Source: Escherichia phage sortsyn | Length of the DNA stretch: 42,116 nucleotides | Sequence record: MN850623.1 | Strand: one strand, 5' to 3' | Part shown: in pieces, positions 6,772 to 32,380 of the stretch | Layout: each line of letters opens with the position of its first letter | Numbering within the stretch: the stretch's first letter is position 1 | Notes under the pieces: model-generated | The model's input: only the letters and a program-made list of their open reading frames with translations | What the model was told of the DNA's origin: nothing | Database searches by the model: none | Made by a program: the position numbers and the translations under genes

Positions 6772-7812
6772 TTACACCTCTTTAAAATATTCTTTGTAAC
6801 GTTGTTGTAAGTAAATCGGAGTGGACAGCGCGATCTCCTCTTGCCCGTTCGCATAGGCGGGCCACACATCACGCTCGCGGCAGTGTTTGAGGACCTGGAG
6901 CGCCGTCTTGTACTGACCGCGACCGACGAGCAACTGTTCCGGCGTTAAGCGATTCATGAGGGCCAGCCACGGCTCGTCTTTTTCCTGTACGAGTAACTTC
7001 GTACCGTTCGGATCCTGCTGGTAGGCCAGCTTGAAACAATCATGTTGTAAAGCCATTTTGCACCAGTAGCCGAGATCGTGGGCCAGTCGCCCGAACTTCT
7101 CCGGCTCCGCGCTTTGCGTCGTCTTAAAGTCGATAATCTCCCCGACGTCCGTCACGCGGTCGAGCCGGACCTTAACGGGAACGCCGTCGATAATACAGAA
7201 CAGCGACAACTCCGGGACCCCCGTCTCAATGATCCGGCGGTAATTGTGGTTAGCCAGCAGAACGTCGCGCATTGAGTGAACGCGGTCCCAGTCCTTCGCC
7301 GGGACGATCTCGCGACCGTTCGCCTCTTTGATGGCGTTCGCCTCGATCTCGTGCCAGATGTGGAGCACTTCGTCCGGGGCCTGGACAGCGCGACACATCG
7401 CGATCAGTTCTTCGGCGGTTTTGTTGGAGTAGCCCTTCTGACCGCGATCCTTTAACCAGCTTTGCATTTTCGCTACAGAGGTGATCAGGTCCGGGAAGTC
7501 GTCCGGGTTAGGCAGACGGAAGAACTCACGAGCGAAGCGATCCGGCTCAAGTAACATCGTGTGGGAAGTGGTCCCGAACGTGAGCGGCTTCTGGGCGGAA
7601 TTGAGTTTTTTTGTTGCGGCTTCCTGTGCCTTCTGGAAACGCCAGGCGGCGGGGCATTTGCTGTAAATGGTCCAGAGGCTCGACCCGGTAATGTAGATCT
7701 CGTCCTCGTGGTATTGCTCATTGGTTAACTGGTCGGCGCTCCGGGCATCGACAAACATCGAAGCGGCTACGTCGTAGGCCGGGAGCGCTGGGATCAATCC
7801 GTTCGTTTGCAT
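6772..7812 (-). CDS. PD-(D/E)XK family exonuclease (RecE/exonuclease VIII-like, DUF3799-type)
   Basis: Nuclease core VRLDRVTDVGEIIDFKT with downstream Y..K; 4-nt ATGA overlap with erf start suggests translational coupling. Confidence 0.6.
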   Translation of the reverse strand: MQTNGLIPALPAYDVAASMFVDARSADQLTNEQYHEDEIYITGSSLWTIYSKCPAAWRFQKAQEAATKKLNSAQKPLTFGTTSHTMLLEPDRFAREFFRLPNPDDFPDLITSVAKMQSWLKDRGQKGYSNKTAEELIAMCRAVQAPDEVLHIWHEIEANAIKEANGREIVPAKDWDRVHSMRDVLLANHNYRRIIETGVPELSLFCIIDGVPVKVRLDRVTDVGEIIDFKTTQSAEPEKFGRLAHDLGYWCKMALQHDCFKLAYQQDPNGTKLLVQEKDEPWLALMNRLTPEQLLVGRGQYKTALQVLKHCRERDVWPAYANGQEEIALSTPIYLQQRYKEYFKEV

Positions 7813-10424: not shown

Positions 10425-11243
10425 ATGGCAATTTATAAAAAAGAGGACGTTCTCGCCGCAATGCCCGGCAAGTGGGAACAGGCGCTCCTCGATCTGTGCG
10501 GCTGGGACCGCAAGGCGTTTAACGGCAATCACCAGCCTTGCCCGATATGCGGCGGGACGGACCGCTTTCGATGGGGCCACAAACAGGCCACGAAGAAGGC
10601 CGAGGGCTTCGGCTACTGTTCCGGCTCCTGTGGTGGCGCTCGTGATGGCATGTTTTGGTTTATGACCAGCAGATCGCAGCCATTCAACGAGGCGATCAAC
10701 GACCTGGGCGACTGGATAGGCGGACTTACCCCGGAGAAGCGGGAAACGATCGTCAAAGAGGCCCGCAAGTATGCCCGCCAGCAGGACAAGCCCGCGCAGG
10801 ACTGGGAGCTGACCCCGGAGGACGTGGAAAAGGTCATGAGCAAAGGCGAAATGCGCGACGGCTTCCTGTATGTTCCATGCGCTCGTCCACTGGGGGGATC
10901 GCTGGGGCCGTGGTGCAACGTGGCGAAGATCGGCTCCGACAGGTCTGTGGTGTTTGCCGCTGGTGGCCCGACGTGGGGCGCGGTAGGGCTGATCCACCCA
11001 GCGCCGGACGCTCCGGTGTATCTGGTGGCGGATCCGGTCCATGCCGTGAACGTGGCGGCGAGAGGGGAGGCGGAGGTCTGGCTGACGTTCCGGCCTATGA
11101 ACGCGATCCAGGCGTCGGCGATCTACGATGGCGATCGGGAGATCCGGTTCGTCTACACTGACCCGGACGAGGTTTTCCTGTACGGCTACGAGAGGACGGG
11201 GAGGCCATGCGTCGGCGGACATCTTGCGGGGGCGTTCGGGTAA
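10425..11243 (+). CDS. Putative DNA primase (primase-helicase type zinc ribbon, Toprim-like remainder uncertain)
   Basis: HQPCPICGGTDRFRW...YCSGSCGG resembles the zinc-binding domain of P4/T7-type primases; AGGAGG SD 6 nt upstream of ATG. Confidence 0.5.
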   Translation: MAIYKKEDVLAAMPGKWEQALLDLCGWDRKAFNGNHQPCPICGGTDRFRWGHKQATKKAEGFGYCSGSCGGARDGMFWFMTSRSQPFNEAINDLGDWIGGLTPEKRETIVKEARKYARQQDKPAQDWELTPEDVEKVMSKGEMRDGFLYVPCARPLGGSLGPWCNVAKIGSDRSVVFAAGGPTWGAVGLIHPAPDAPVYLVADPVHAVNVAARGEAEVWLTFRPMNAIQASAIYDGDREIRFVYTDPDEVFLYGYERTGRPCVGGHLAGAFG

Positions 11244-11248
11244 AAAAA

Positions 11249-11270
11249 AGCCCCGGCGAGGGGCTTAATG
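11249..11270. terminator. Hairpin with A8 run upstream; strongest as a minus-strand terminator
   Basis: Stem GCCCC/GGGGC preceded by AAAAAAAA, followed only by TTAATG on the plus strand. Confidence 0.35.
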
Positions 11271-11323
11271 CGTCGATACCAGCGGCGCTAATGTTGCTAC
11301 AGGGAAACGTGAGAAGCCATAAA

Positions 11324-11366
11324 TAGCACTTTTTGCTAAAACACAAAACAGTTAATCAATTATCGT
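11324..11366 (+). promoter_or_regulatory. Promoter cassette copy A: palindrome TAGCACTTTTTGCTA plus -10-like region (weakest copy, no TG)
   Basis: Palindrome 11324-11338; upstream of dam. Confidence 0.4.
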
Positions 11367-11396
11367 TAGTCACCACCAACCAAAAAAGGGCAGCAG

Positions 11397-12038
11397 ATGA
11401 AAGACGAGAAAGACACCACCACGATCGACCATGTGGACGGCATGACCGAAGCGGAACGCGCAGCGGCAGACGTGACCACTGTTAGCGGTCGCCGCTTCAA
11501 CAAGTCCAAGACGCCGGACGCTATCCGCCAGAAGTGGCAGACCCCGCGCTGGCTGTTCGACTGGGCTGTGAAGCGCTTCGGGCAGTTCGGGATCGACGTC
11601 GCAGCGGAGAAAGCGAACGCGCTTTGTGACGTCTATCTGGACGAGAAAACGGACGCCCTCAAGGACGGCGTAGACTGGGGCGCGGAGGGCGGGCTGGCCT
11701 GGTGCAATCCTCCTTACGCCGAGCCGCTTCCGTGGATCGTGAAGGCTATCCAGCAAGCGAAGGATCGCGACGTTACGACCGTTTTCCTCCTGAACTCCGA
11801 CGCGTCCACGGCGTGGTTTAAGAAGGCGCTGGACGCCGGGAGCCTGGTTATTCACATCACCAGCGACGGCGAGAACTCCGGGCGCGTGGCGTTCGTGAAG
11901 GCAGGGACCGAAGTCGCGGGCAAGAAGAACAGCAAGCCGTCCGTGATGTTCGTTATCAAGCCGAAGAAGCGCGGACCGATCAAGACTGAATATCTGACCC
12001 AGGCGGAAATGATGTTCGAAGGCAAAACGATGATTTAA
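11397..12038 (+). CDS. dam: Phage Dam-family DNA N6-adenine methyltransferase
   Basis: WQTPRWLFDWAVKRFGQFGIDVAA...AWCNPPYAEP...TAWFKK: NPPY catalytic motif and the phage Dam (N6_N4 MTase) signature. Confidence 0.9.
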   Translation: MKDEKDTTTIDHVDGMTEAERAAADVTTVSGRRFNKSKTPDAIRQKWQTPRWLFDWAVKRFGQFGIDVAAEKANALCDVYLDEKTDALKDGVDWGAEGGLAWCNPPYAEPLPWIVKAIQQAKDRDVTTVFLLNSDASTAWFKKALDAGSLVIHITSDGENSGRVAFVKAGTEVAGKKNSKPSVMFVIKPKKRGPIKTEYLTQAEMMFEGKTMI

Positions 12039-12054
12039 CCGAGAGGACCCAGAG

Positions 12055-12636
12055 ATGATTATTTATGCACCAGTAAGCGCCTTACGCGCTCACCAACTCA
12101 CCAAAGGCCAGCAGGACGTCCGCTACTACCTGAACGCGCTCCACTTCATCGGGAACCGGATCCGCACGTCTAACGGTCATGTTTGCATGGAAAGCACTCA
12201 TAAGCTGGTAAACGCGCCGGAGGAGGGGATTATTCTCTCAATCTCCACGCCACCGACTGGGCGGATCTTCTCCGCCGTGATCGATACCGAAGCGGGGATC
12301 GTGTACTGGCTGGACATTCCGGCAGACAAGCCGAAGGACCTCGAAGAAGTGGACCACAAAAAGGCCCGCGTCGCTGTGGGGACCGTGGACATTGTGGAGG
12401 CTAATTATCCGAACGTGGACGCGTTACTGAACAAGGCCCGCGAGAACTCGAAGGCCGTCCACGAGATCGGCGTGGCGACGCCTTACCTCGGAATGGTCGA
12501 GAGGCTGGCGAAGAAGTTCGGGATCAAGATGCCTTTTGCGAAACTGAACTTTAACGGCGCAGCGGAGCCGATCCGCGTGAACCTGACCACGCCGGACGGC
12601 GAGGCAACCCTGATCATTATGCCCGCGAGAGTGTAA
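12055..12636 (+). CDS. Hypothetical protein
   Basis: 193-aa ORF, coding-like composition, same strand block, 16 nt after dam. Confidence 0.5.
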   Translation: MIIYAPVSALRAHQLTKGQQDVRYYLNALHFIGNRIRTSNGHVCMESTHKLVNAPEEGIILSISTPPTGRIFSAVIDTEAGIVYWLDIPADKPKDLEEVDHKKARVAVGTVDIVEANYPNVDALLNKARENSKAVHEIGVATPYLGMVERLAKKFGIKMPFAKLNFNGAAEPIRVNLTTPDGEATLIIMPARV

Positions 12637-12639
12637 GCA

Positions 12640-12873
12640 ATGAAATATAACGACGGTCACACTAATAGCCGCTGGGCCATCTTCCAGGAGAAGGTCGCGG
12701 ACGAGTTAATGGCGCGTAAGCTGGTGGCCTCCCGTGAGGAGGCCGAGCACTTCGCCGAGGCGCTCGATCTCTCTTTCGAGCAGGACTATAACCCGGTACA
12801 TATGGACCAGTGGGACGCGCTGATCAAGCGTGACGCCGACGAGTACGAGAAGGATCAGAACCGTGAAGCATAA
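12640..12873 (+). CDS. Hypothetical small acidic protein
   Basis: 77-aa ORF, D/E-rich, tightly packed in operon. Confidence 0.45.
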   Translation: MKYNDGHTNSRWAIFQEKVADELMARKLVASREEAEHFAEALDLSFEQDYNPVHMDQWDALIKRDADEYEKDQNREA

Positions 12874-13603
12874 GGCGATTTTCCTGTTTAACCTGACCCG
12901 GATCATGGTGGACAAGTGGCTGGAGGCTGGCGTGGAATGCTGGATGTATGACGGGCAGCACGAGCCAGGGATCCACCCAGACGCCGACGAGCCGAACCTG
13001 ATCCGTGTGGGCCGGATGTTCGACGCAGACAACACGGAAGTAGAAGCGCTCAGAATCGCCGATGAAGTCGGGCCGGGCGTGATCTTCGTGGCCTCCTTTG
13101 CTGAATGCACCGATCTAACCTGTACCGGGGCCAGATGGTGGGAAGCGAAGCGCAAGAAGGATCCGCGCTTCCAGGAGAAGGCCGTCGCGCTGGCGAAGAT
13201 GGTCGAGCAGGTGGCTACGTTTGCCGGGTACGAAAACGGCGACTATGAGGACAAAACGCTGGTCCCCTGGATGCTGGAGAATCCGAAGATCTCCCGGCTC
13301 TCGACCATGTGGCGACCTTGCGATCACTGGTTCCACCCCTACAACTTCGGCGGCTACTTGCCGGAGGATCACCAGCATAGCCTCTACCCGGAGATCTACC
13401 CAGCGCGGGACGCGTACCCGAAGCAGACGGGGATCTGGTGCGGTGGCGGCTTCCGCTTCCCGGCATTCCAGAGCGTCCAGGCTGTTAAGGATAATCCGGG
13501 CTGGTCGAAGCTGGGCGGATCCAGCACACGAACGAAGAACATCCGAAGCGCCACGCCCGAAGGCTTCGCCGTCGCGGTCTACATCGAAAACGCTCCATTC
13601 TGA
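12863..13603 (+). CDS. Hypothetical protein with conserved Cys/His/Trp-rich segments
   Basis: GTG at 12863 preceded by AAGGA, overlapping the upstream stop (ORF track start 12830 is the alternative); no family motif recognised. Confidence 0.55.
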   Translation: MKHKAIFLFNLTRIMVDKWLEAGVECWMYDGQHEPGIHPDADEPNLIRVGRMFDADNTEVEALRIADEVGPGVIFVASFAECTDLTCTGARWWEAKRKKDPRFQEKAVALAKMVEQVATFAGYENGDYEDKTLVPWMLENPKISRLSTMWRPCDHWFHPYNFGGYLPEDHQHSLYPEIYPARDAYPKQTGIWCGGGFRFPAFQSVQAVKDNPGWSKLGGSSTRTKNIRSATPEGFAVAVYIENAPF

Positions 13604-13606
13604 CAC

Positions 13607-13630
13607 AAGGCCCTCCGGGGCCTTTTTTGC
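13607..13630 (+). terminator. Rho-independent terminator
   Basis: Stem AAGGCCC/GGGCCTT then TTTTGC. Confidence 0.7.
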
Positions 13631-13633
13631 GTA

Positions 13634-13677
13634 TAGCACTTTTTGCTAAAGCAATGCCGATTATCCTTTGTTATTAT
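13634..13677 (+). promoter_or_regulatory. Promoter cassette copy B: palindrome TAGCACTTTTTGCTA plus TGtTATTAT extended -10
   Basis: Palindrome 13634-13648; TG 13669-13670; hexamer 13672-13677. Confidence 0.5.
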
Positions 13678-13705
13678 TCTTTCACACCAACACGAGGACG
13701 ACGAA

Positions 13706-13933
13706 ATGAAACAGACATTACTCCACACCAAAACAAACAAGGCTCAGATCGTGAACCCGCTGTTACTGAAACAGGCGCACATCCTGATCGAGACAGCGAT
13801 GATCCTCCGTAACCGCCTCAAGATGTACGCGGCGGGGCCACTGGCAAAGGCAGCGCTGACCCGCGAAGCGGTCCAGGCGGAGAACGACGCCCGCGAACTT
13901 ATCCGGGGGGCGTATGGCTACCCGGCCCACTAA
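13706..13933 (+). CDS. Hypothetical protein
   Basis: ATG at 13706 downstream of promoter cassette copy B (ORF track lists 13643). Confidence 0.4.
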   Translation: MKQTLLHTKTNKAQIVNPLLLKQAHILIETAMILRNRLKMYAAGPLAKAALTREAVQAENDARELIRGAYGYPAH

Positions 13934-14192
13934 GGCCACGCGCCGGGAGATCTGGGAGGCGGCTCAGGCCGCTAACCTGGACGAGATGATCAGTAAAGTG
14001 TCCGCCGTGTTTGGCAAAGACGCGATCGCCGACATCTCGATCGAGACTCCAGACGGCGAGATGTACCTGAACAACCCGGACCCGCATCACTACCGCGTCA
14101 CGCCGGGAACCAAAAGCGAGAAGGGCGACCTTAAGCGGGCGCTGGACTCAACGAAAAACCGGAAGCACCTCAAAGGAGGATCTCGTGGGTAA
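13914..14192 (+). CDS. Hypothetical protein
   Basis: 92-aa ORF overlapping the upstream gene by 20 nt. Confidence 0.4.
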   Translation: MATRPTKATRREIWEAAQAANLDEMISKVSAVFGKDAIADISIETPDGEMYLNNPDPHHYRVTPGTKSEKGDLKRALDSTKNRKHLKGGSRG

Positions 14193-14577
14193 AGTAACAG
14201 CGCAGATTATCGGATGGACTGACGAGCAGGACGCGGAACTGACCCGCCTCGCCGGGACCATGCCGCCGCACGAACTGGCGAAGCGCATCGGTCGCAACTT
14301 CCGCCAGATGCAGGTCCGGGCCTCTAAGCTGGGCCTCTCCCTGGCGTATAACCGGACGTACACGCAATGGACGACGGAGGAGGACCGGAAGCTGGTCCGC
14401 TTCTGGGAGGGACTTCTGACCGATGAGGATCTGGACGAACTGGTGATCGCCACTGGTCGCCGGGTGATAGTACCGACTGAACTCACCCACGCGCATGTCG
14501 CGAACTGGCTCAACAAATCGCGTCCGTCAATTCGCGGACGCCTGGCAAAATTCAAGAAAGAGGGGAAAATCGCATGA
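14185..14577 (+). CDS. GcrA-like DNA-binding transcriptional regulator (two WT[DT]E[QE]D repeats)
   Basis: WTDEQDAELTRLAG...HELAKRIGRNFRQMQVRASKLGLS resembles the GcrA N-terminal domain as recalled; second repeat WTTEEDRKLVRFWEG; GTG start with AGGAGG SD. Confidence 0.5.
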   Translation: MGKVTAQIIGWTDEQDAELTRLAGTMPPHELAKRIGRNFRQMQVRASKLGLSLAYNRTYTQWTTEEDRKLVRFWEGLLTDEDLDELVIATGRRVIVPTELTHAHVANWLNKSRPSIRGRLAKFKKEGKIA

Positions 14578-14675
14578 ACAACTTACGCGGACACAAATAC
14601 GTTATATGGGGCGTAATCGCAGCAAGCGCCGCGCTGTGGGCTTTAATCGGTTTCGGCGTGTCGATGGTACTATAA
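14574..14675 (+). CDS. Small hydrophobic (single transmembrane helix) peptide, 33 aa
   Basis: ATGA start/stop overlap with upstream gene; MNNLRGHKYVIWGVIAASAALWALIGFGVSMVL; ends right before a terminator. Confidence 0.35.
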   Translation: MNNLRGHKYVIWGVIAASAALWALIGFGVSMVL

Positions 14676-14712
14676 AAAAAGGGCCGCTTAAAAAGCGGCT
14701 CCTTTCGTTTTA
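14676..14712. terminator. Rho-independent terminator, bidirectional
   Basis: A-run, stem GGGCCGCT/AGCGGCTCC, then TTTCGTTTT. Confidence 0.7.
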
Positions 14713-14773
14713 ACGCCAGAGATGATCTACAATGCCGGGGCAGTATACCGCACAATTTCACGAGGACAAAATT

Positions 14774-15538
14774 ATGGCTTTTTGGCATCGGCAATACCGC
14801 GCTGATCTTTTCGGATGGAAGGTATCGCGCATCCTTGATCCCTCCGCTCCTGGTGTACATCAAAAAGATGTTATCTGGCTGGCGTCTGAACCTGCAAACC
14901 TCGATCCTACTGGGATGTTTTATTTCCAGCCTGATCCGAAGTCAGACCAGCCTCTCCAGTTTTTGGTAAACCTTAGCGGCAACAACGGCAGCGACGTCAC
15001 GGGATCATACGTGCCTAACGGCTCCTTAAAATCATTCTCCGTACAAGTAGCCGGGGGCGTTCCTCCGTATACCTTCGCATGGTTCCGGCGTTCCGGCGGC
15101 GTGGACAACTCCGTGGGGACTAACTCCAGCACCTACTCGATCCCCGCCTACTCCTCCAGCAATAACGGGGATTATTTTTGTCGCGTGACCGATGCGCAGG
15201 GCGTCATGATCGAATCGCTACGCGAGCGCACCAAAGTATTGATCAGGCTGACGACTAACCTCCCGTTAACTGATGCGTGGGCCGTGGGCGTGTCTGACAG
15301 CCTTGCGATCGTTGTCTCTGATGGCCTTACCCCGTATACCTACCAATGGCAGAAGTCCACGGACGGCGGGGCAACCTGGAGCAACGTCGCTAACGGTGGG
15401 ACCGTCTCCGGGGCCACTACTGCAACGCTGACCAACTCCGCCCCCGCGCTGGGTGATGCCGGAATGTACCGCTGTATTATCACCGACTCAGCGGGCTATA
15501 AAGTCCAGTCCGTACAATGCGCCGTAACGGTGGCATAA
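14774..15538 (+). CDS. Moron-like protein with two immunoglobulin-like domains
   Basis: Two Ig-type repeats (PPYTFAWFRRSGG...GDYFCRVTDAQG and TPYTYQWQKSTDGG...GMYRCIITDSAG); GAGGA SD before ATG 14774 (ORF track start 14732); flanked by terminators; first 60 nt about 52 percent GC. Confidence 0.7.
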   Translation: MAFWHRQYRADLFGWKVSRILDPSAPGVHQKDVIWLASEPANLDPTGMFYFQPDPKSDQPLQFLVNLSGNNGSDVTGSYVPNGSLKSFSVQVAGGVPPYTFAWFRRSGGVDNSVGTNSSTYSIPAYSSSNNGDYFCRVTDAQGVMIESLRERTKVLIRLTTNLPLTDAWAVGVSDSLAIVVSDGLTPYTYQWQKSTDGGATWSNVANGGTVSGATTATLTNSAPALGDAGMYRCIITDSAGYKVQSVQCAVTVA

Positions 15539-16976: not shown

Positions 16977-17000
16977 TTATGATTGATTGTTAAGTTATTG

Positions 17001-17969: not shown

Positions 17970-18218
17970 TTAATACTCGTCGGCGCGGATCTTGTTACGG
18001 TGGATCAGGCGATTCAGTTCGAACTCGCCGCGAGTCATGAACTCGTCCACGCGTTCCTCCTGTTCCGGCTCCTCGCCTGTTAATTCCGGCGCTTTCCATG
18101 AGAGATAGCGCTTAACTGTGCCAGTTTTCACGAACGCCGGGAGCAGGTTTTTAAAGTTACGTGACCACTGACGCCCGCGCTCTTGATCGCCTTTTACCAT
18201 GATTGTTAAGTTTGCCAT
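17970..18218 (-). CDS. Hypothetical protein, first gene downstream of promoter cassette copy C
   Basis: 82-aa ORF beginning 47 nt after the cassette -10. Confidence 0.45.
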   Translation of the reverse strand: MANLTIMVKGDQERGRQWSRNFKNLLPAFVKTGTVKRYLSWKAPELTGEEPEQEERVDEFMTRGEFELNRLIHRNKIRADEY

Positions 18219-18264
18219 CGTTATCTCTCCGGTAGTGGGCGACCCATTGCCGCCCGGTGAAAGA

Positions 18265-18307
18265 ACTATAACAACATTTGATAAATCGCTTTTAGCAATT
18301 CGTGCTA
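18265..18307 (-). promoter_or_regulatory. Promoter cassette copy C (minus strand): palindrome TAGCACGAATTGCTA plus TGtTATAGT extended -10
   Basis: Palindrome 18293-18307; hexamer 18265-18270 on the minus strand. Confidence 0.5.
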
Positions 18308-19395: not shown

Positions 19396-19480
19396 GAGTT
19401 TTCTTTACTGGTGCGGATTGACGGCGTTATGAATCACTGTTAAGTTATGAACACTTTATTAACGCAGCAGGGAAAAGACA

Positions 19481-21169
19481 ATGACTGATTATGATGAAGT
19501 AATGCCGACACCAGAGCGCAGCGAGGAGGAGCTGATCGAGATGGTCCGGGGCGAGTTCTCCGGCCCGGTAACGCCTCCACCTGCTGACGACGTGCCAGAG
19601 GCTCCTATGGAGTTCTACGAGGAACAGGCCAGCCTGTACGCGGCGAGAGAAGCAGAATCCGCCCAGGATGCCGGGGCGTTCTTCGACTTCGACGAGCACG
19701 AGGCCGCAGAGTGGACGGCAACCGTCCGCAACGACAAGCCGACGATCGTCAAGACGTCCGACCTCACCGACGAGGAGAAGGACGAAGCACGTCGCCAGGA
19801 ACTCCTCGCGAAGCAGCGCGAGAAGCAGCGCAAGAAGATCGACGAGGCGCTGGCGGTCGAGGCAATGGACGACCCGCTGATCGCCAGCCTGAACAAGTCG
19901 AACGAGATCAAGCCCGTTAACTATGTGATCCAGTCGCTGATCCCGGAGCGCTCCGTGGGCTTCCTGGTCGGCGAGTCCGGCGCAAAGAAAACGTTCGCAG
20001 CGTTACAAATGGCGATTTGTGTCGCCACCGGGATCGACTTCGGCGGCTTGCCAGTCCGACAGGGATCCGTGATGTACTTCGCGCCGGAGGATGCGAGCGG
20101 CGTCCGTGAACGTTACGCGGGATGGAAGTACACGCAGAACAAGAACGAGCCGTTACCCAACTTTTGGGTATTGTCCCAGCAGGTCCCACTACACCGCGAG
20201 AGCGAACTCCAGACGTTCGCGGCAACCATCAAGGCGTCCCCGTTCTTCGGCCTGAACCCGCTTTCCCTGATCGTGATCGATACCTACAGCGCCAACAGCG
20301 CGGGCCAGAAAGTGGGCGAGCGCATGATCCCAGGCAAGGGCGACGAGCCGGACCGCTGGGAGGGCGGGACCGACTTCAACGAGAACGACAACAACGTGGC
20401 GGCGATCCTGATGCGTAACGCGGCGTTACTGGCTGAATGGCTTAACTGTGCCGTGATGATCATCCACCACACCGGGAAGGACACCGAGCGAGGCGCTCGT
20501 GGCGCGTCAACCCTCCGCGCTAACGCCGGATTCGAGATCATGGTGAAGAAGTGCAGGGACAAGGAGCTTTTTGTGATTGAGCACACGAAGGCCAAAGGCT
20601 GTGCGCTTCTCCCGGCGCGAGCCATGCGCACGAAGTCCGCGAAGTTACCGCCTGACCTGGTGAAGATGAAGCGCGAGGCGCTGGCGAGGATGCAGCCTGT
20701 ACGCCCGGAGGCGAAGGCCAACCCGGCGGCGTGGGAGATCGGCGACAACCTGGGGACGCTGGTCGTCATTAACGCGCTGGAGGCAGTGCCAGCCGAGAAG
20801 GACGAGGGCGAGAAGCCGGAGGACACGCGCAAGCGCAGCAAGAAGGAGGAACAGGCGATCCGACTGCTGGCCTACGTCGTGGAATACTCGCAGCAGCGCA
20901 AGGACAAGGGCTACCGCTTGCCGAAGCTGACCAAAGGCATGTTATCCGATCACTTCCGCAACTTCGCAGAGCCGCCGATTAAGCGGACGGACTTTTTCCA
21001 CGCCTTCGAACATGCGACCAAAAAAATGATGATCATCAAAATGGCAGGGGACGAAACGCTGACCGCCTCAACCGAAGCGGCTCCGCTCCTGGGTGGAATC
21101 CGGGATCAGAAGCCACTCCCGACCGACTGGAAACCGACCGAAGGATCCGACGATCTGAGTGACTTTTAA
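19481..21169 (+). CDS. RepA-like AAA_25/RecA-fold ATPase, putative replication initiator-helicase
   Basis: GFLVGESGAKKTFAALQMA (deviant Walker A), Walker B LIVIDTYS, IIHHTGKD motif typical of RepA/DnaB-like ATPases; acidic N-terminal region. Confidence 0.65.
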   Translation: MTDYDEVMPTPERSEEELIEMVRGEFSGPVTPPPADDVPEAPMEFYEEQASLYAAREAESAQDAGAFFDFDEHEAAEWTATVRNDKPTIVKTSDLTDEEKDEARRQELLAKQREKQRKKIDEALAVEAMDDPLIASLNKSNEIKPVNYVIQSLIPERSVGFLVGESGAKKTFAALQMAICVATGIDFGGLPVRQGSVMYFAPEDASGVRERYAGWKYTQNKNEPLPNFWVLSQQVPLHRESELQTFAATIKASPFFGLNPLSLIVIDTYSANSAGQKVGERMIPGKGDEPDRWEGGTDFNENDNNVAAILMRNAALLAEWLNCAVMIIHHTGKDTERGARGASTLRANAGFEIMVKKCRDKELFVIEHTKAKGCALLPARAMRTKSAKLPPDLVKMKREALARMQPVRPEAKANPAAWEIGDNLGTLVVINALEAVPAEKDEGEKPEDTRKRSKKEEQAIRLLAYVVEYSQQRKDKGYRLPKLTKGMLSDHFRNFAEPPIKRTDFFHAFEHATKKMMIIKMAGDETLTASTEAAPLLGGIRDQKPLPTDWKPTEGSDDLSDF

Positions 21170-21422
21170 CGGGGCGTTGTGTTCCGTTAACGTTATCCCC
21201 TCTCTTATAGAGAGAGGGATAAACGCGTAACGTTAACAACATATGCCGGAAAGTCTAAACAACGTTAACTATGAACTGAAAATTAACATAACAGATTCAT
21301 GAAGTTACAAGAGAAGTGTTAACAGGTTTATGGCAAATCGTTAATGCGGAAATCAGGGGGTAAAAATCGGGGGCCACCCCCGAAAAATCCCCGCTTAAAT
21401 AATCATTGATAAGTGATGCGAA
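21170..21422. other. Candidate replication origin: AT-rich non-coding region with GTTAAC-containing iterons and a ~28-bp imperfect palindrome
   Basis: 253-bp gap after the RepA-like gene; GTTAAC at 21186, 21232, 21254, 21318; AACGTTAAC repeated; palindrome TATCCCCTCTCTTATAGAGAGAGGGATA at 21195-21222; GC hairpin GGGGGCCACCCCC. Confidence 0.45.
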
Positions 21423-22383: not shown

Positions 22384-22431
22384 GTTTTCACCGGGCGACG
22401 AGACGCCCACCACGAACCAGAGGGCAAGACC

Positions 22432-23778: not shown

Positions 23779-23825
23779 TCTTCTCGACGGCGGGAAATGG
23801 TCCCGCCACTGACCGGGAGAACATC

Positions 23826-26692: not shown

Positions 26693-27104
26693 ACTCCCGC
26701 CGGACACTTACGGCAAGCTGGAGGCGCAGGGCCTGAAATGGTTCACGGCGTCCCCTTACCCTTATTTCATCGTGTGCTTTGACCCGCAGGACGAGGAGAT
26801 GGTGGCGAAGCTGGCGGAATGCTTCCCGGACTGGAACCGCGAGAAGGAGATCCAGCAGGGCGTCGCCATTGAGTACCACGCCGCCGACGTTAAGCTGGTG
26901 TTCGTGGGCGTCCGCCGGGGCCAATACTGGCGGACCACGATCGCACACGAGATCGTCCACGTTAAGAACTACATCGGCGACACGCTGGGGATCGAGTGGG
27001 ACCCGAACAACGACGAGCCGGAGGCGTACTTCGTGGGCTGGCTGTTTAACATGATGGAGCAGACCTTCGGGGATCTGGGCTATGGCAAAAAATCGAAAGG
27101 ATAA
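26670..27104 (+). CDS. HExxH motif protein (putative Zn-metallopeptidase-like) nested between terS and terL
   Basis: TIAHEIVHV HExxH motif; fills the 390-nt terS-terL interval with 23-nt overlaps on both sides; GGAGG SD. Confidence 0.5.
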   Translation: MATKKANKLPPDTYGKLEAQGLKWFTASPYPYFIVCFDPQDEEMVAKLAECFPDWNREKEIQQGVAIEYHAADVKLVFVGVRRGQYWRTTIAHEIVHVKNYIGDTLGIEWDPNNDEPEAYFVGWLFNMMEQTFGDLGYGKKSKG

Positions 27105-28704
27105 CCTCGATCGACTGGCTCGCCTGGAGGGGCGGGCCGCTTACGTCGCACGAGACGGCGGGCTGGTCTATGGCGTCTATGAGCCGGACGGGACCAGCGC
27201 CAAGCACTGCTACAACATGAAGAAGGTTAACGGAGAGTGGATCTACACCTCCGAGCCGCACGACATTACGATCGCGGAGTGTCTGACCCCGATCCTCCTC
27301 CGTCCGAAGCGCTTTATTATCCTGGTCGGGGGCCGTGGCTCCGGGAAGTCCCTCACCGTCGGCGGGATCATCGACGCGGACGCCCACGACGAGGCAGCGA
27401 GCGCGATGTGTCTCCGTGAGTACCAGGCATCGATCAAGGATTCAGTCCACCCGCTCCTCGTCAACCGGATCGAGGCTTACGGGCTGGACGGCTTCGAGGT
27501 ACTGGAGAAGGAGATCCGCCACTCCAACGGCGCGATCATCCGATTTAAGGGGATGGCCAGGGACCCGGCGGGCGTTAAGTCCGCGTTCGGCTTCCGTCGC
27601 TTCTGGGGCGAGGAGGCGCAGACCTTTTCCGCCGAGTCTCTCCGCCAGCTTACGCCGACCATGCGCGAAACGGGCGGCATGATGCTGTTCACCGCGAACC
27701 CCGGCTCCTCGGAGGATGCGTTCTCTCAGCGTTTTCTCATTCCATTCTGGGAGGATCTCCAGCGTGACGGCATCTACGAGGACGATCTCCACCTGATTAT
27801 CCGCGTGAACTGGGAAGATAATCCCTGGTTCCCCCCAGAGCTTCGATCGGAGATGGAGTTCGACCGCGTAACCCTCTCGAAAGCGCTGTTTGATCACGTA
27901 TGGGGCGGGATGTTTAACGACTCCGTACCGGATGCGATTATCCCGGCGGAATGGTTCGACGCGGCGATCGACGCCCACAAGAAACTCGGATTCAAGCCGT
28001 CCGGCATGAGGATCGGCGCACTCGACCCGGCGGACGTCGGGGCGGATAACAAGGCATACGGCGAGCGCTTCGGCTCCGTCGTCACCCATATGGAGGAATG
28101 GTTCGAAGGGGACGCGAACGACTCCGTAGACAAGGCGATCAACACGGCGAAGGACCACGGGATCGAGGCGTTCGTGTGGGACCGCGCCGGACTGGGCGCT
28201 GGCCTCCGTCGCCAGGTTACGGACTCATACGCCGGGACGAACGTCCTCGTAGACGGCTACAACGCCGGGGACGGCGTGAAGTTCCCGGACAACCCTGTGG
28301 AGCTGGATCACTGGCTCAACAACAAGGCGAAGGGCGACAACATTCAGAAGAATATCGACGCTTTCGCGAACCGTGGCTCCCAGGATATCTACCTGTTACG
28401 GAAGCGCTTCGAAAGGACTTACGAGGCCGTGGTGAAGGGCGTCTATCACAACCCGGACGACCTTATCAGCCTGGACAGCGAGGGGATCGGGGAGCATATG
28501 ACCAAACTCAGGGCCGAAGTGTGCCGCATCCCGCGCATTTACAACACGAACGGGAAGTTTGCCAGGATGCCAAAACCCCAAATGAGAACAAAACTCAAAA
28601 TGAAATCCCCAGGGATGGCGGACGTTCTTTGCATGTTAATGCAGCCACCGGAAGCGAAAAAAGAGGATGATTACAGCTATTATCAAGTGCCTAGCAACTC
28701 GTAA
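27082..28704 (+). CDS. Terminase large subunit
   Basis: Walker A VGGRGSGKS, ATPase plus nuclease domain layout, upstream of portal. Confidence 0.9.
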   Translation: MAKNRKDNLDRLARLEGRAAYVARDGGLVYGVYEPDGTSAKHCYNMKKVNGEWIYTSEPHDITIAECLTPILLRPKRFIILVGGRGSGKSLTVGGIIDADAHDEAASAMCLREYQASIKDSVHPLLVNRIEAYGLDGFEVLEKEIRHSNGAIIRFKGMARDPAGVKSAFGFRRFWGEEAQTFSAESLRQLTPTMRETGGMMLFTANPGSSEDAFSQRFLIPFWEDLQRDGIYEDDLHLIIRVNWEDNPWFPPELRSEMEFDRVTLSKALFDHVWGGMFNDSVPDAIIPAEWFDAAIDAHKKLGFKPSGMRIGALDPADVGADNKAYGERFGSVVTHMEEWFEGDANDSVDKAINTAKDHGIEAFVWDRAGLGAGLRRQVTDSYAGTNVLVDGYNAGDGVKFPDNPVELDHWLNNKAKGDNIQKNIDAFANRGSQDIYLLRKRFERTYEAVVKGVYHNPDDLISLDSEGIGEHMTKLRAEVCRIPRIYNTNGKFARMPKPQMRTKLKMKSPGMADVLCMLMQPPEAKKEDDYSYYQVPSNS

Positions 28705-29325: not shown

Positions 29326-31563
29326 ATGATGGCACGAGCAACGAAGAAGGCGCAGAACTGGCAGGAATGCGCACGTAATAAGTTAAGCGCCGCGATCGGG
29401 AGCGAGGAGTCCAGTCGTAAGAAGATGATCGAAACGGCCCGTTTCGTCCGCATTCCGGGCGCACAATGGGAAGGATCGACGAACTCCGGCTTTGCGATGG
29501 ATGATGAACGATTCCAGAAATACCCTCGATTCGAGCTTAACAAGGTCGGGCGCGAGGTGGATCGCATTATCACCGACTACCGCCTGAACCGCATCAATGT
29601 TACTTTCCGCCCGAAGGACACCCAGGCCTCCGAAGAACTGGCGGACAAGTTAAACGGCAAGTTCCGCGCAGACTTCCAGGAGTCGAACGGGCCGGAGTCC
29701 GTGGACAATACCTACGACGACGGCGTGACGGGCGGAATGGGCGCTTTTCGCATGGACACCGAACTGGAGGACGAGTTCGACCCGGACAACGAGGCCCGGC
29801 ATATTGTTTTCTATCCGATCTATGATCCGGCCTCGTGCCTGTTTATCGATCAGGACTCCAAAATGTACGATCGTTCGGATGCCATGTGGATGGCGGAGCT
29901 ATTCAGCATGACCCCAGACAAGTACGAGGAGAAATATCCCGACGCGCTCGCCCCGGAGGACCTGCTGGCGATGGACACCGGGAAGCAATTCGACTGGGCC
30001 ACGAAGGACGCGATCTATCTGGCGCGTTACTACGAGGTGAAGATCGAGGACACCACCGTGATCTCCTATAAGAACCCACTCACCGGGGACGTGGAGGTAT
30101 ACGACGAGGACGAGATCGAGCAGATCGAGGACGAGCTTAAGGCCGGAGGCTGGGAGCGCCAGAAGGACCGCAAGGTGAAACGCCGTAAGGTCTATTGCGG
30201 CCTAATGTCCGGCGGTGAATGGATCGAGGAGCCGAAGCTGATCCCGTTCGAATGGATCCCGATCTTCGTGTTCAACGCCCGCCGCTCGTTTATCGACAAC
30301 ATGGAGCGCGTAAGCGGTCACGCGACCCAGGCCCTCGACGCGCAACGTCTGGAAAACCTGATCGTGTCCATGATGGCGGACCAGGCCGCGCAGTCTGGCG
30401 GCGATAACATCCCGATCATGGATATCGACATGATTCCCGGCAAGCTGGCGGACGCCTGGGGGGAACGTAACACGAAGCGCCCGGCATACTTGCCCGCGAA
30501 ATCGCTCCGTAATGCCGCTGGTGAGGTCGTGCAGCAAGCCGGGCCACTGGGTTACACGCCATCGACTCCGCTCTCTCCAGCGCTGGCGGCGGTCCTCCAG
30601 TACACCGGGAGCACTATCCAGCAGATCGTCGGATCCTCCCAGGTCGAGGCCCTTCCGTCGAACCTTGCGACCGAAACCGTGGAGGCTATTTTCGCCCGCA
30701 TGGACGGCCAGGGCGCTCTCTACATGGACAACCTGGGGAAAACCCTCCGCCATTGCGGGCGTGTTTACCTCAGCGCGGCCCGCAAGGTCTACGGCTCGGA
30801 AAACTACGTCCGAATCAAGAACGAGGACGGGACCGACGATCTCGTGTTAATGACCGGGAAAGTGATCGACCGCGACACGGACGAGGCGATCGCGATTAAC
30901 GACCTCAAGCGCGGAAAATATGAGGTCGAGGCCGACGTGGGCGAGTCCAGCAGCACCAAACGGACTGCAACCGTCCGCAGCCTGACGACGCTCCTCCAGT
31001 CGATGGCACCAGGCGACCCGAACGCCGCCGTAGTCATGGGCCTGATCATCATGAACATGGACGGCGAAGGCTTGCAGGACTTCAAAGAGTACAGCCGCCG
31101 CCAGCTTCTCCTTAACGGCATTATCAAGCCGCAGACGGACGAAGAAAAAGCCCTTGTTCAACAGGCCCAGCAAGCGGCCCAGCAGCAGGAAAACCCGGAG
31201 ATGGTAGCCGCTCAGGGCGTAGCGCAGCAGGGACAGGCCGCAGTGATGGAGCAGGAGAACAAGCGCTTAGAATTGCAACTCAAGGCGCAGAGCACCGCGT
31301 CCGACGGCAATCTGAAACAGGCGCAGACGGTCAAGACGATGGCAGAGGCGGCAGCAATCCCGCAGGATCAGCTATTGAGCGCGATCGCCGTCCTCCAGAA
31401 GTACGTGAGCCAGCAGAACAGCGACGCCCACAAACAGGCGGATCTGTTCCTCAAGGCGCAGGGGCAAGGCCACAACCAGCAGGAGGATCGGAACGCTCGC
31501 GAGATGGCAGAACGCCAGGCGCAGCAGTCCGCCGATCGCCAGTTAGGACTCGCTGGCCTGTAA
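29326..31563 (+). CDS. Portal protein (P22 gp1-like)
   Basis: Colinear similarity to P22 portal as recalled (FYEV...EDT, KRRKVY, IPIFVF segments) and a Gln/Ala-rich C-terminal barrel region (LVQQAQQAAQQQENPEMVAAQGVAQQGQAAV). Confidence 0.92.
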   Translation: MMARATKKAQNWQECARNKLSAAIGSEESSRKKMIETARFVRIPGAQWEGSTNSGFAMDDERFQKYPRFELNKVGREVDRIITDYRLNRINVTFRPKDTQASEELADKLNGKFRADFQESNGPESVDNTYDDGVTGGMGAFRMDTELEDEFDPDNEARHIVFYPIYDPASCLFIDQDSKMYDRSDAMWMAELFSMTPDKYEEKYPDALAPEDLLAMDTGKQFDWATKDAIYLARYYEVKIEDTTVISYKNPLTGDVEVYDEDEIEQIEDELKAGGWERQKDRKVKRRKVYCGLMSGGEWIEEPKLIPFEWIPIFVFNARRSFIDNMERVSGHATQALDAQRLENLIVSMMADQAAQSGGDNIPIMDIDMIPGKLADAWGERNTKRPAYLPAKSLRNAAGEVVQQAGPLGYTPSTPLSPALAAVLQYTGSTIQQIVGSSQVEALPSNLATETVEAIFARMDGQGALYMDNLGKTLRHCGRVYLSAARKVYGSENYVRIKNEDGTDDLVLMTGKVIDRDTDEAIAINDLKRGKYEVEADVGESSSTKRTATVRSLTTLLQSMAPGDPNAAVVMGLIIMNMDGEGLQDFKEYSRRQLLLNGIIKPQTDEEKALVQQAQQAAQQQENPEMVAAQGVAQQGQAAVMEQENKRLELQLKAQSTASDGNLKQAQTVKTMAEAAAIPQDQLLSAIAVLQKYVSQQNSDAHKQADLFLKAQGQGHNQQEDRNAREMAERQAQQSADRQLGLAGL

Positions 31564-32330: not shown

Positions 32331-32380
32331 GATTGTGTCGGCGGGGAATGGTCCCCGCCACTGACCAGAGAGACTACAAA

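Follow-up and report, generated by a model that had tools for sequence, protein, structure and literature searches.

Escherichia phage sortsyn (sequence record MN850623.1) is a Murrayvirus (PMC7552041). The whole stretch of its DNA that was analysed, here called the window, is 42,116 nucleotides (nt) long. The block considered here, at 11,397 to 14,577, opens with the gene for a Dam-type DNA N6-adenine methyltransferase and ends with the gene for a 130-amino acid (aa) protein made of two helix-turn-helix (HTH) domains. Over positions 11000-15000 the sequence is 96.5% identical to Enterobacteria phage IME_EC2, also of genus Murrayvirus, and 72 to 90% identical to Lumpael, sortregn, KMB41, Sortsne and IME279. 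IME_EC2 is annotated as a P22-like podophage and its annotation contains no RNA polymerase gene; transcription must therefore use the host enzyme. The genes and features of the block and its flanks, with the source of each assignment, are as follows.

10425-11243, + strand: primase (open reading frame (ORF) list, annotation of relatives)
11324-11366, + strand: cassette A, a putative promoter, with palindrome TAGCA-CTTTT-TGCTA (11324-11338), 22 nt, and a weak -10-like TATCGT (11361-11366)
11397-12038, + strand: Dam-type DNA N6-adenine methyltransferase, 213 aa (PF05869, TIGR01712, phrog_111)
12055-12636, + strand: phrog_3007 protein, 193 aa (phrog_3007, E 2.7e-43)
12640-12873, + strand: phrog_2676 protein without assigned function, 77 aa (PHROG match)
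12863-13603, + strand: methyltransferase-like protein, 246 aa (phrog_757, E 3e-64)
13607-13630, + strand: predicted intrinsic terminator, end of the methylase unit (terminator scan, folding)
13634-13677, + strand: cassette B, a putative promoter, with palindrome (13634-13648), 23 nt, and an extended -10 TGT-TATTAT (13669-13677)
13706-13933, + strand: helical protein with no family match, 75 aa (ORF list, PHROG search)
13914-14192, + strand: phrog_2817 protein without assigned function, 92 aa (PHROG match)
14185-14577, + strand: tandem-HTH protein, 130 aa, orthologue of IME_EC2 gp09
14574-14675, + strand: hydrophobic peptide gene, 33 aa (ORF; annotated in KMB41)
14681-14701, + strand: terminator-like hairpin (14681-14711 including its T-rich tail; scan and folding)
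14732-15538, + strand: Hoc-like decoration protein (ORF list, annotation of relatives)

The genes of the block are ordinary phage genes, and their arrangement is best explained as two adjacent, tightly packed, cassette-driven transcription units. We put the probability of this explanation as a whole at roughly 0.6. Unit A (11397-13603) would be a DNA-modification module consisting of Dam, the phrog_3007 protein, a small protein and a divergent C5-methylase-like enzyme, and would end at the intrinsic terminator at 13607-13630. Unit B (13706-14675) would encode small proteins together with the 130-aa protein and its two tandem three-helix HTH domains. Each unit would start from what appears to be the standard promoter type of the phage, a palindrome followed by a TATAGT-like -10, used by the host sigma70 polymerase.

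An earlier note on this DNA had placed the Dam and HTH genes in a single operon headed by cassette copy A. The cassette does head the block, its palindrome lying just upstream of the Dam gene. The single operon did not hold up, as a terminator and cassette B lie in between and the position of the terminator is conserved in relatives. Directly 3' of the stop codon at 13603, the transcript can form AAGGCCC-UCCG-GGGCCUU, a 7-bp GC-rich stem followed by U6 (-13.7 kcal/mol, z -2.4), which was also flagged by the terminator scan. A hairpin and T-run occur at the equivalent position in Sortsne, Kc237 and STP9 with stem sequences that differ, which argues for terminator function. Cassette B follows directly 3' of it, ahead of the second unit. 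Because a terminator and a second cassette intervene, the Dam and HTH genes are neighbours in two units. Within each unit the genes overlap or are spaced by 16 nt or less, and the second unit is predicted to be closed by the hairpin at 14681-14701 (-16.8 kcal/mol, z -4.0). Unit B ends with the 33-aa hydrophobic ORF (MNNLRGHKYVIWGVIAASAALWALIGFGVSMVL), in overlap with the HTH stop codon; phage KMB41 has it annotated, and in Sortsne its reading frame is also kept in intergenic sequence.

The cassettes form a well-defined repeat family. The motif TAGCACNNNNTGCTAAA occurs in six exact copies in the window against 0.31 expected, at 11324, 13634, 22341, 23736 and 32288 on the + strand and at 18291-18307 on the - strand. 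When 16 promoter copies from three genera (the sortsyn-like phage, Skarpretter and STP9) were compared, the element found 22 to 23 nt after TGCTA was TATAGT or a close variant of it, in many cases with TG in front. The 15-bp palindrome TAGCA-N5-TGCTA is centred at about -42 from the inferred start and there is no -35 at the canonical 17-bp spacing. TTGCTA of the palindrome was considered as a -35 hexamer and rejected, as its distance to the -10 is 22 to 23 nt rather than 16 to 18. At class II activator-dependent promoters an activator dimer, for example CRP or FNR, is centred near -41.5. The cassette resembles class II sigma70 promoters in its palindrome at about -42, its good and often extended -10 and the lack of a -35, although its half-site TAGCA with N5 spacing fits none of the regulators compared. 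The geometry fits a host sigma70 promoter with a dimeric factor at about -42, and cassettes A and B are, from their sequence, putative promoters of the methylase unit and of the second unit, respectively.

Copies A and B have the spacer CTTTT and no downstream hairpin. Copies C to F have the spacer CGAAT and a GC-rich hairpin (-8 to -16 kcal/mol) a few bases 3' of the -10, early in the transcript (22393-22408, 23789-23807 and 32340-32359 on the + strand, 18237-18255 on the - strand). The stems of these hairpins differ between copies through compensatory changes, and the two cassette subclasses may be regulated differently. Since cassettes precede the methylase, HTH, lysis and structural units and not the replication or recombination genes, their distribution suggests that they are middle or late promoters.

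Exact copies of TAGCA-N5-TGCTA number six in the window, six in IME_EC2, seven in Skarpretter and at least four in STP9; there are none in Sortsne, Kc237 or Kc166B, whose equivalent promoters have an upstream ATCACGAA-type element in place of the palindrome. In the homologous promoters of Sortsne (contig L006: 7757-7869, 10308-10480, 39258-39340, 41025-41136) and Kc237 (contig L008: 8841-8957), the -10 and initial transcribed sequence (TGTTATATTCTTT.TCACACCAAC) are unchanged. Sister genera have thus exchanged one upstream operator for another. A search for a cassette-binding factor, with the window, IME_EC2, Skarpretter and STP9 as the palindrome set and Sortsne, Kc237 and Kc166B as the contrast set, found no ORF with a clean phyletic pattern, that is, kept in the phages with the palindrome and divergent in those lacking it. 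The 75-aa product of 13706-13933, for instance, shows 68% identity in Skarpretter and just 37% in STP9.

A separate 22-nt family, TTATGA(A/T)T.A.TGTTAAGTTAT, is present in four copies (16977-16998, 18193-18214, 19427-19448 and 21396-21417). As the copy at 19427 forms TTGACG-N17-TAAGTT upstream of the gene at 19481, at least some of these copies may be ordinary sigma70 (early) promoters.

The identification of the first gene as a Dam-type N6-adenine methyltransferase with an NPPY motif was borne out. Its product matches Pfam PF05869 over its full length (E 1.5e-44, 152.1 bits against a cut-off of 28.1) and the NCBIfam equivalog TIGR01712 (116.7 bits against 97.05), as well as phrog_111 (E 7e-55) and the PADLOC orphan methyltransferase (E 5e-29); a sequence search of the PDB gave no match. 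The catalytic NPPY is at aa 104-107 (nt 11706-11717), and we infer that the target is GATC. In its full-length, above-cut-off match and its NPPY the enzyme is like other phage orphan Dam proteins (PF05869/TIGR01712). Unusually, it is accompanied by a second, C5-like methylase, and GATC is 1.7-fold in excess genome-wide.

That second enzyme is the product of 12863-13603. The earlier note had left the genes between Dam and the HTH protein as several unknown proteins, a description that no longer fits this one, which is methyltransferase-like, or the product of 12055-12636, which belongs to phrog_3007 and carries depositor labels. The 12863-13603 product falls in phrog_757, 'DNA methyltransferase', and carries the depositor label Dcm methylase. 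It has no Pfam (including PF00145), NCBIfam or PDB sequence match, and its 184 homologues, often labelled 'Dcm methylase', likewise include none with a Pfam domain. C5-cytosine methyltransferases are marked by the catalytic Pro-Cys of motif IV, the Glu-Asn-Val of motif VI and a Rossmann fold. In a 34-sequence alignment of this protein F-x-E-C-T-D (Glu-Cys, with Cys82) and E-N-P (139-141) are invariant and reminiscent of motifs IV and VI. The AlphaFold (AF2) model has a Rossmann fold (predicted local distance difference test, pLDDT, 92.8), and Foldseek matched it weakly to S-adenosylmethionine-dependent methyltransferases, the only near-full-length matches (about 240 columns) being to DNMT1 catalytic domains. 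Motifs and model together suggest a probable divergent cytosine-modifying enzyme. Depositor labels for the 12055-12636 product are beta-clamp-like or RusA-like; neither could be confirmed, and the protein has no Pfam, NCBIfam or PDB sequence match.

The gene at 14185-14577 has a GTG start preceded by a strong Shine-Dalgarno sequence (AGGAGG). Repeat 1 of its 130-aa product covers aa 9-53 (nt 14209-14343) and repeat 2 aa 60-128 (nt 14362-14568), the latter with an insertion of about 25 aa that, relative to the orthologues in Skarpretter, STP9 and Kc166B, forms a helix at about aa 78-100. In the AlphaFold model (pLDDT 79), residues 13-49 form a three-helix bundle and residues 64-126 another helical unit. 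As the model has two units, and as each of the positional orthologues (Skarpretter, STP9, Kc166B) plainly consists of a single domain duplicated in tandem, the earlier note was correct in seeing two repeats. The two carry different recognition helices. The 29 close homologues come exclusively from Murrayvirus- or Sortsnevirus-like contigs, lack Pfam domains and share the invariant block A-G-T-M-P ... R-N-F-R-Q-M-Q-V.

Routine searches said little about this protein. Scans of Pfam, NCBIfam and PADLOC assigned no significant family, and the sub-threshold Pfam matches were to Myb and Crp-HTH only (Myb_DNA-binding and Myb_DNA-bind_6, E 0.21 and 0.79, 12.2 and 10.4 bits against cut-offs of 24.4 and 22.9). 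A PDB search with the protein's own-family profile gave only matches of E about 1, to Cef1/Myb and Lrp-type HTH proteins, and the source names of relatives are uninformative ('hypothetical' or 'Lrp/CsgD family regulator'). The best PHROG match was phrog 323, 'transcriptional regulator, D5-like' (E 6.5e-17, aa 9-91), which spans profile positions 147-222 of 319 and whose name is an annotation label only.

Deeper comparisons recovered the resemblance to the GcrA DNA-binding domain (DBD) that the earlier note had read from the sequence. Foldseek matched repeat 1 to GcrA chain 5yiv_A with probability 0.98 (target-normalised template modelling score 0.80); Myb and homeodomain folds score nearly as well, so the GcrA match is not exclusive. 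With a GcrA N-terminal alignment built from 83 database proteins, hhalign gave the protein's own shallow family a probability of 68% (P 4.8e-5, all 44 columns). A profile search of 1.84 billion representatives (E ≤ 0.001) returned 643 relatives, many with five to ten tandem repeats, and a repeat consensus of W-T-x-E-E-D-x-x-L-R-x-L-Y-G ... E-I-A-x-x-L-G-R-T-x-x-A-V-x-x-R-A-x-x-L-G-L. When 201 repeats were added to the family, hhalign against the GcrA N-terminal profile reached a probability of 97.9% (E 4.7e-13). Among the controls for this wider family, a single GcrA sequence scored E 8.5e-12, c-Myb R3 E 8e-8 and c-Myb R2 E 4.7e-6, and neither E. coli sigma70 region 4 nor reversed GcrA was significant. 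Against the PDB the repeat profile found GcrA chains at E 6.5e-6 and c-Myb at E 7.5e-8, the latter summed over two repeats; when single repeats were searched against Pfam, 13 of 77 matched Myb, 13 of 77 Sigma70_r4_2 and 4 of 77 GcrA (GcrA at E ≤ 0.01). On the strength of the controlled hhalign comparisons, the PDB matches and the scatter of Pfam matches, the domain is, as judged by profile, homologous to the DBD of GcrA (residues 1-45) and, at a greater distance, to Myb/SANT, within the wider group of Myb/homeodomain-like HTHs.

The likeness to Myb/SANT R2R3 proteins (PF00249, PF13921) lies in the tandem three-helix repeats starting W-T-x-E-E-D. The 130-aa protein differs from them in falling below the Pfam thresholds and in lacking Myb's regularly spaced tryptophan triad, and the single-sequence hhalign comparison favours GcrA over c-Myb R3. 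From a two-repeat Myb-type protein one would expect monomeric binding to an asymmetric site. The different recognition helices of the two repeats likewise fit an asymmetric site and not a symmetric one, and the 130-aa protein would contact such a site, of about 10 to 12 bp, as a monomer through both helices. It would be a sequence-specific DNA-binding protein and most probably a phage transcription regulator.

Homology of the DBD does not make the protein a GcrA. The DBD of GcrA reads N6-methyladenine (m6A) with pockets lined by R33, N34, I37 and G38, and an essential C-terminal CCCH zinc finger (C-X14-C-X9-C-X2-H) clamps sigma70 region 2 (PMC5887438). The profile search that the earlier note had proposed for the 14185-14577 product had a divided outcome: hhalign found the GcrA profile once the family was widened, whereas Pfam PF07750 (GcrA) gave no match to the whole protein or to either half even at E ≤ 10. 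The protein has no cysteines and its C-terminal half is the second HTH. With zero cysteines it cannot hold the CCCH sigma70-interacting domain and, because that domain is absent, a GcrA-style role as a sigma70-tethered cofactor is excluded for it. Membership of the GcrA family is therefore rejected. The m6A-pocket residues, too, seem not to be kept, the alignments leaning negative: in the best-supported hhalign alignment, that of the broad family, R33/N34/I37/G38 correspond to F39/R40/Q43/V44, and in a shallower one R33/N34/I37 map to R40/Q41/V44, with a gap at G38. Compared with GcrA of Caulobacter crescentus (PF07750; PDB 5YIU/5YIV/7YE1), the pattern W-T-D-E ... I/L-A-K-x-L/I-G ... L-G-L-S is common to both. 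GcrA has one DBD, a linker and the CCCH domain, whereas the phage protein has two DBD-like repeats and neither linker nor CCCH domain. The partner methylase of GcrA is CcrM (GANTC), whereas the window is from an enterobacterial phage with a Dam-type (GATC) methylase. The 130-aa protein shares just the DNA-binding fold with GcrA.

GATC itself is unusually frequent, with 524 sites in the window. Long coding sequences (such as 23-2125, 27082-28704 and 29326-31563) contain 287, against 165 ± 7.7 expected from shuffling synonymous codons at constant protein sequence and codon usage (z 15.8); under the same shuffling no other palindromic tetramer behaves like GATC. The bias is visible in codon choice. 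The codon before ATC ends in G in 66% of cases, against 30 to 47% before other A-starting codons (about 36% overall), and GAT is followed by C in 47%, against 17% for GAC. The excess is 1.46- to 2.06-fold (z 9 to 20) in the window and all six Dam-encoding relatives, which span four genera. The corresponding ratio is 0.96 in 40 kb of E. coli K-12 coding sequence, that is, no excess, and is reversed (0.29) in the Dam-less contig L009. GATC appears, from these comparisons, to be strongly selected for in the Dam-encoding clade, so that the sequence, and presumably its methylation, matters to these phages.

A second over-represented sequence, the asymmetric 11-mer CTGGGNGGATC, occurs in 21 copies against 0.18 expected, in all reading frames and both orientations, five of them intergenic. 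Sites include 102-112, 10890-10900, 13511-13521, 25025-35, 33091-101 and 38096-106 on the + strand and 8605-15, 16001-11 and 39064-74 on the - strand. It is abundant in IME_EC2, Kc166B, Sortsne and Kc237 and rarer in Skarpretter and STP9, and there is none in 50 kb of E. coli. The 11-mer was considered as a Chi site and rejected; Chi is GCTGGTGG, of which there are 8 separate copies.

The genomic contexts of distant small homologues bear on function. Lambdoid phages usually encode a late-gene regulator just upstream of the lysis and late genes. In the P22-like contig L009, which has no methylase and avoids GATC (14 sites in 15 kb), a 110-aa two-repeat homologue (7121-7453) directly precedes the genes for holin, lysozyme, Rz and terminase. 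This placement at the usual late-regulator site is suggestive, by analogy, of a regulator. On contig L016 (6001-7827) the homologue is translationally coupled to an N6_N4 methylase gene through an overlapping 50-aa ORF, and on contig L017 (955-2795) it is flanked by Mrr_N and N6_N4 methylase genes (Mrr_N fusions). The remaining informative contigs have no methylase near the homologue. About seven contigs were informative, a further four being too short for this purpose; two of the seven or so have N6/N4 methylases next to the homologue, and a Dam-family gene occurs in none. A general association of the repeat family with Dam was rejected on that count; for methylases at large the contigs are too few to call, and the two cases are hints of a functional tie.

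What the 130-aa protein does has been weighed against four alternatives. The model of the earlier note makes it a methylation-sensitive transcription factor of GcrA-like type: by reading Dam marks on the palindromic cassettes, it would tie transcription from them to methylation. In its favour are the GcrA-DBD-like fold and homology, the Dam gene 2.1 kb upstream of the HTH gene and the fact that both genes appear cassette-driven. None of the six cassettes, however, contains GATC, GANTC or CCWGG, in a genome with a GATC about every 80 bp, and the nearest GATC sites are 18 to 115 bp from the palindromes. The sigma70-interacting domain is absent and, going by the best alignment, the pocket residues do not appear to be kept. 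Palindrome and protein also fail to co-vary: Sortsne and Kc237 have a 70%-identical protein with the invariant putative recognition helix RNFRQMQV and no palindrome, and Skarpretter and STP9 have the palindrome with a homologue of just 32 to 34% identity and different helices. Finally, two different recognition helices fit an asymmetric site rather than a palindrome. Methylation-coupled control of the cassettes is an unsupported idea with several sequence observations against it, and the model is extremely improbable. If the protein were instead a methylation-independent factor acting on TAGCA-N5-TGCTA at -42, activating or repressing all six cassettes, it would supply, from among the phage's own DNA-binding proteins, the cassette-binding factor that the genome requires, and its C-terminal HTH does weakly resemble Crp/Lrp-type HTHs. 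The same phyletic mismatch applies, a symmetric 5+5 bp palindrome is a poor target for tandem HTHs that differ from one another and, with its own gene behind a cassette, the protein cannot be the first activator, which makes this role unlikely. In short, the protein is unlikely as a cassette factor, methylated or not, because the cassettes lack methylation sites, there is no co-variation and the geometric fit is poor.

A reader of methylated GATC sites outside the cassettes, for example those in CTGGGNGGATC, could be an m6A-dependent regulator or a DNA-organising protein. GATC is at 1.46 to 2.06 times the synonymous-shuffle expectation in seven of seven Dam-encoding genomes, neutral in E. coli and avoided in the Dam-less relative, the 11-mer is far above expectation, an 11-bp asymmetric site would suit a two-HTH monomer, the closest solved structure is an m6A reader, and methyltransferase genes adjoin the distant homologues in L016 and L017. 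Nothing connects the protein to CTGGGNGGATC, however, and the abundance of the motif does not track protein similarity (17 copies in Kc166B with a divergent protein, seven in Skarpretter, seven in STP9). In the best-supported alignment Q and V stand in place of the pocket residues I37 and G38, and the Dam-less, GATC-avoiding phage also has a two-repeat homologue. Such a reader is very unlikely. The idea of a methyl-reader is not set to zero because GATC matters to the clade. Lastly, the protein may not be a transcription factor at all and might control the methylase module (like the C-protein of a restriction-modification system), assist in packaging or recombination, or be a free-standing version of the DNA-binding module that HNH endonucleases carry as a fusion. 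It matches phrog_1891 (HNH endonuclease, N-terminal part; E 8e-4), relatives match Terminase_5 and other HTH families, and the L016 homologue is coupled through the 50-aa ORF to the N6_N4 methyltransferase gene. These matches are weak, a catalytic domain is absent and the protein's top PHROG match is with a family of transcription regulators, so that a role outside transcription is rather unlikely.

The two-unit reading, with a tandem-HTH protein of a large uncharacterised family as, most likely, a phage regulator, has points against it as well. Promoters and terminators are putative assignments from sequence and conservation; the strong selection for GATC indicates that Dam methylation matters here, and a reader protein would be plausible; and the two of about seven distant contexts in which a tandem-HTH homologue stands beside N6/N4 methyltransferase genes hint at a functional link.

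Downstream of unit B, a GATC and a TACAAT hexamer adjoin directly (14724-14733) just 3' of the terminator, and Sortsne shares the string AGATGATCTACAATGCCGGGG of this region (14724-14776). With GAGGA as its Shine-Dalgarno sequence, the ATG at 14774 may be the true start of the Hoc-like gene instead of 14732. The window has no GAATTC (EcoRI) site and only six of CTAG, and scans of the whole window detected no tRNA genes or Rfam families.

As first stated, the finding would have extended GcrA-style epigenetic control of transcription to an E. coli phage, for which the evidence is insufficient; what had been observed was confirmed in part and the interpretation supported in part. The transcription map is corrected to two units, and a conserved putative promoter made of palindrome and -10 heads each of them. 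Tandem GcrA-DBD/Myb-like HTH repeats can now be assigned to a set of phage proteins so far listed as hypothetical, the repeat being present in at least 643 relatives, in some of them in up to 10 copies. That in the Dam-encoding podophage clade (Murrayvirus, Sortsnevirus, Skarprettervirus and relatives) a tandem GcrA-DBD-type protein reads methylated GATC sites, such as those in CTGGGNGGATC, is highly improbable; if true, it would be the first GcrA-type m6A-reading DNA-binding protein outside Alphaproteobacteria, and one that works without sigma70 tethering. The apparent positive selection of GATC in Dam-encoding phages is a more intriguing lead than the finding as first stated, and is a reason to measure the methylomes of these phages and to test candidate readers.

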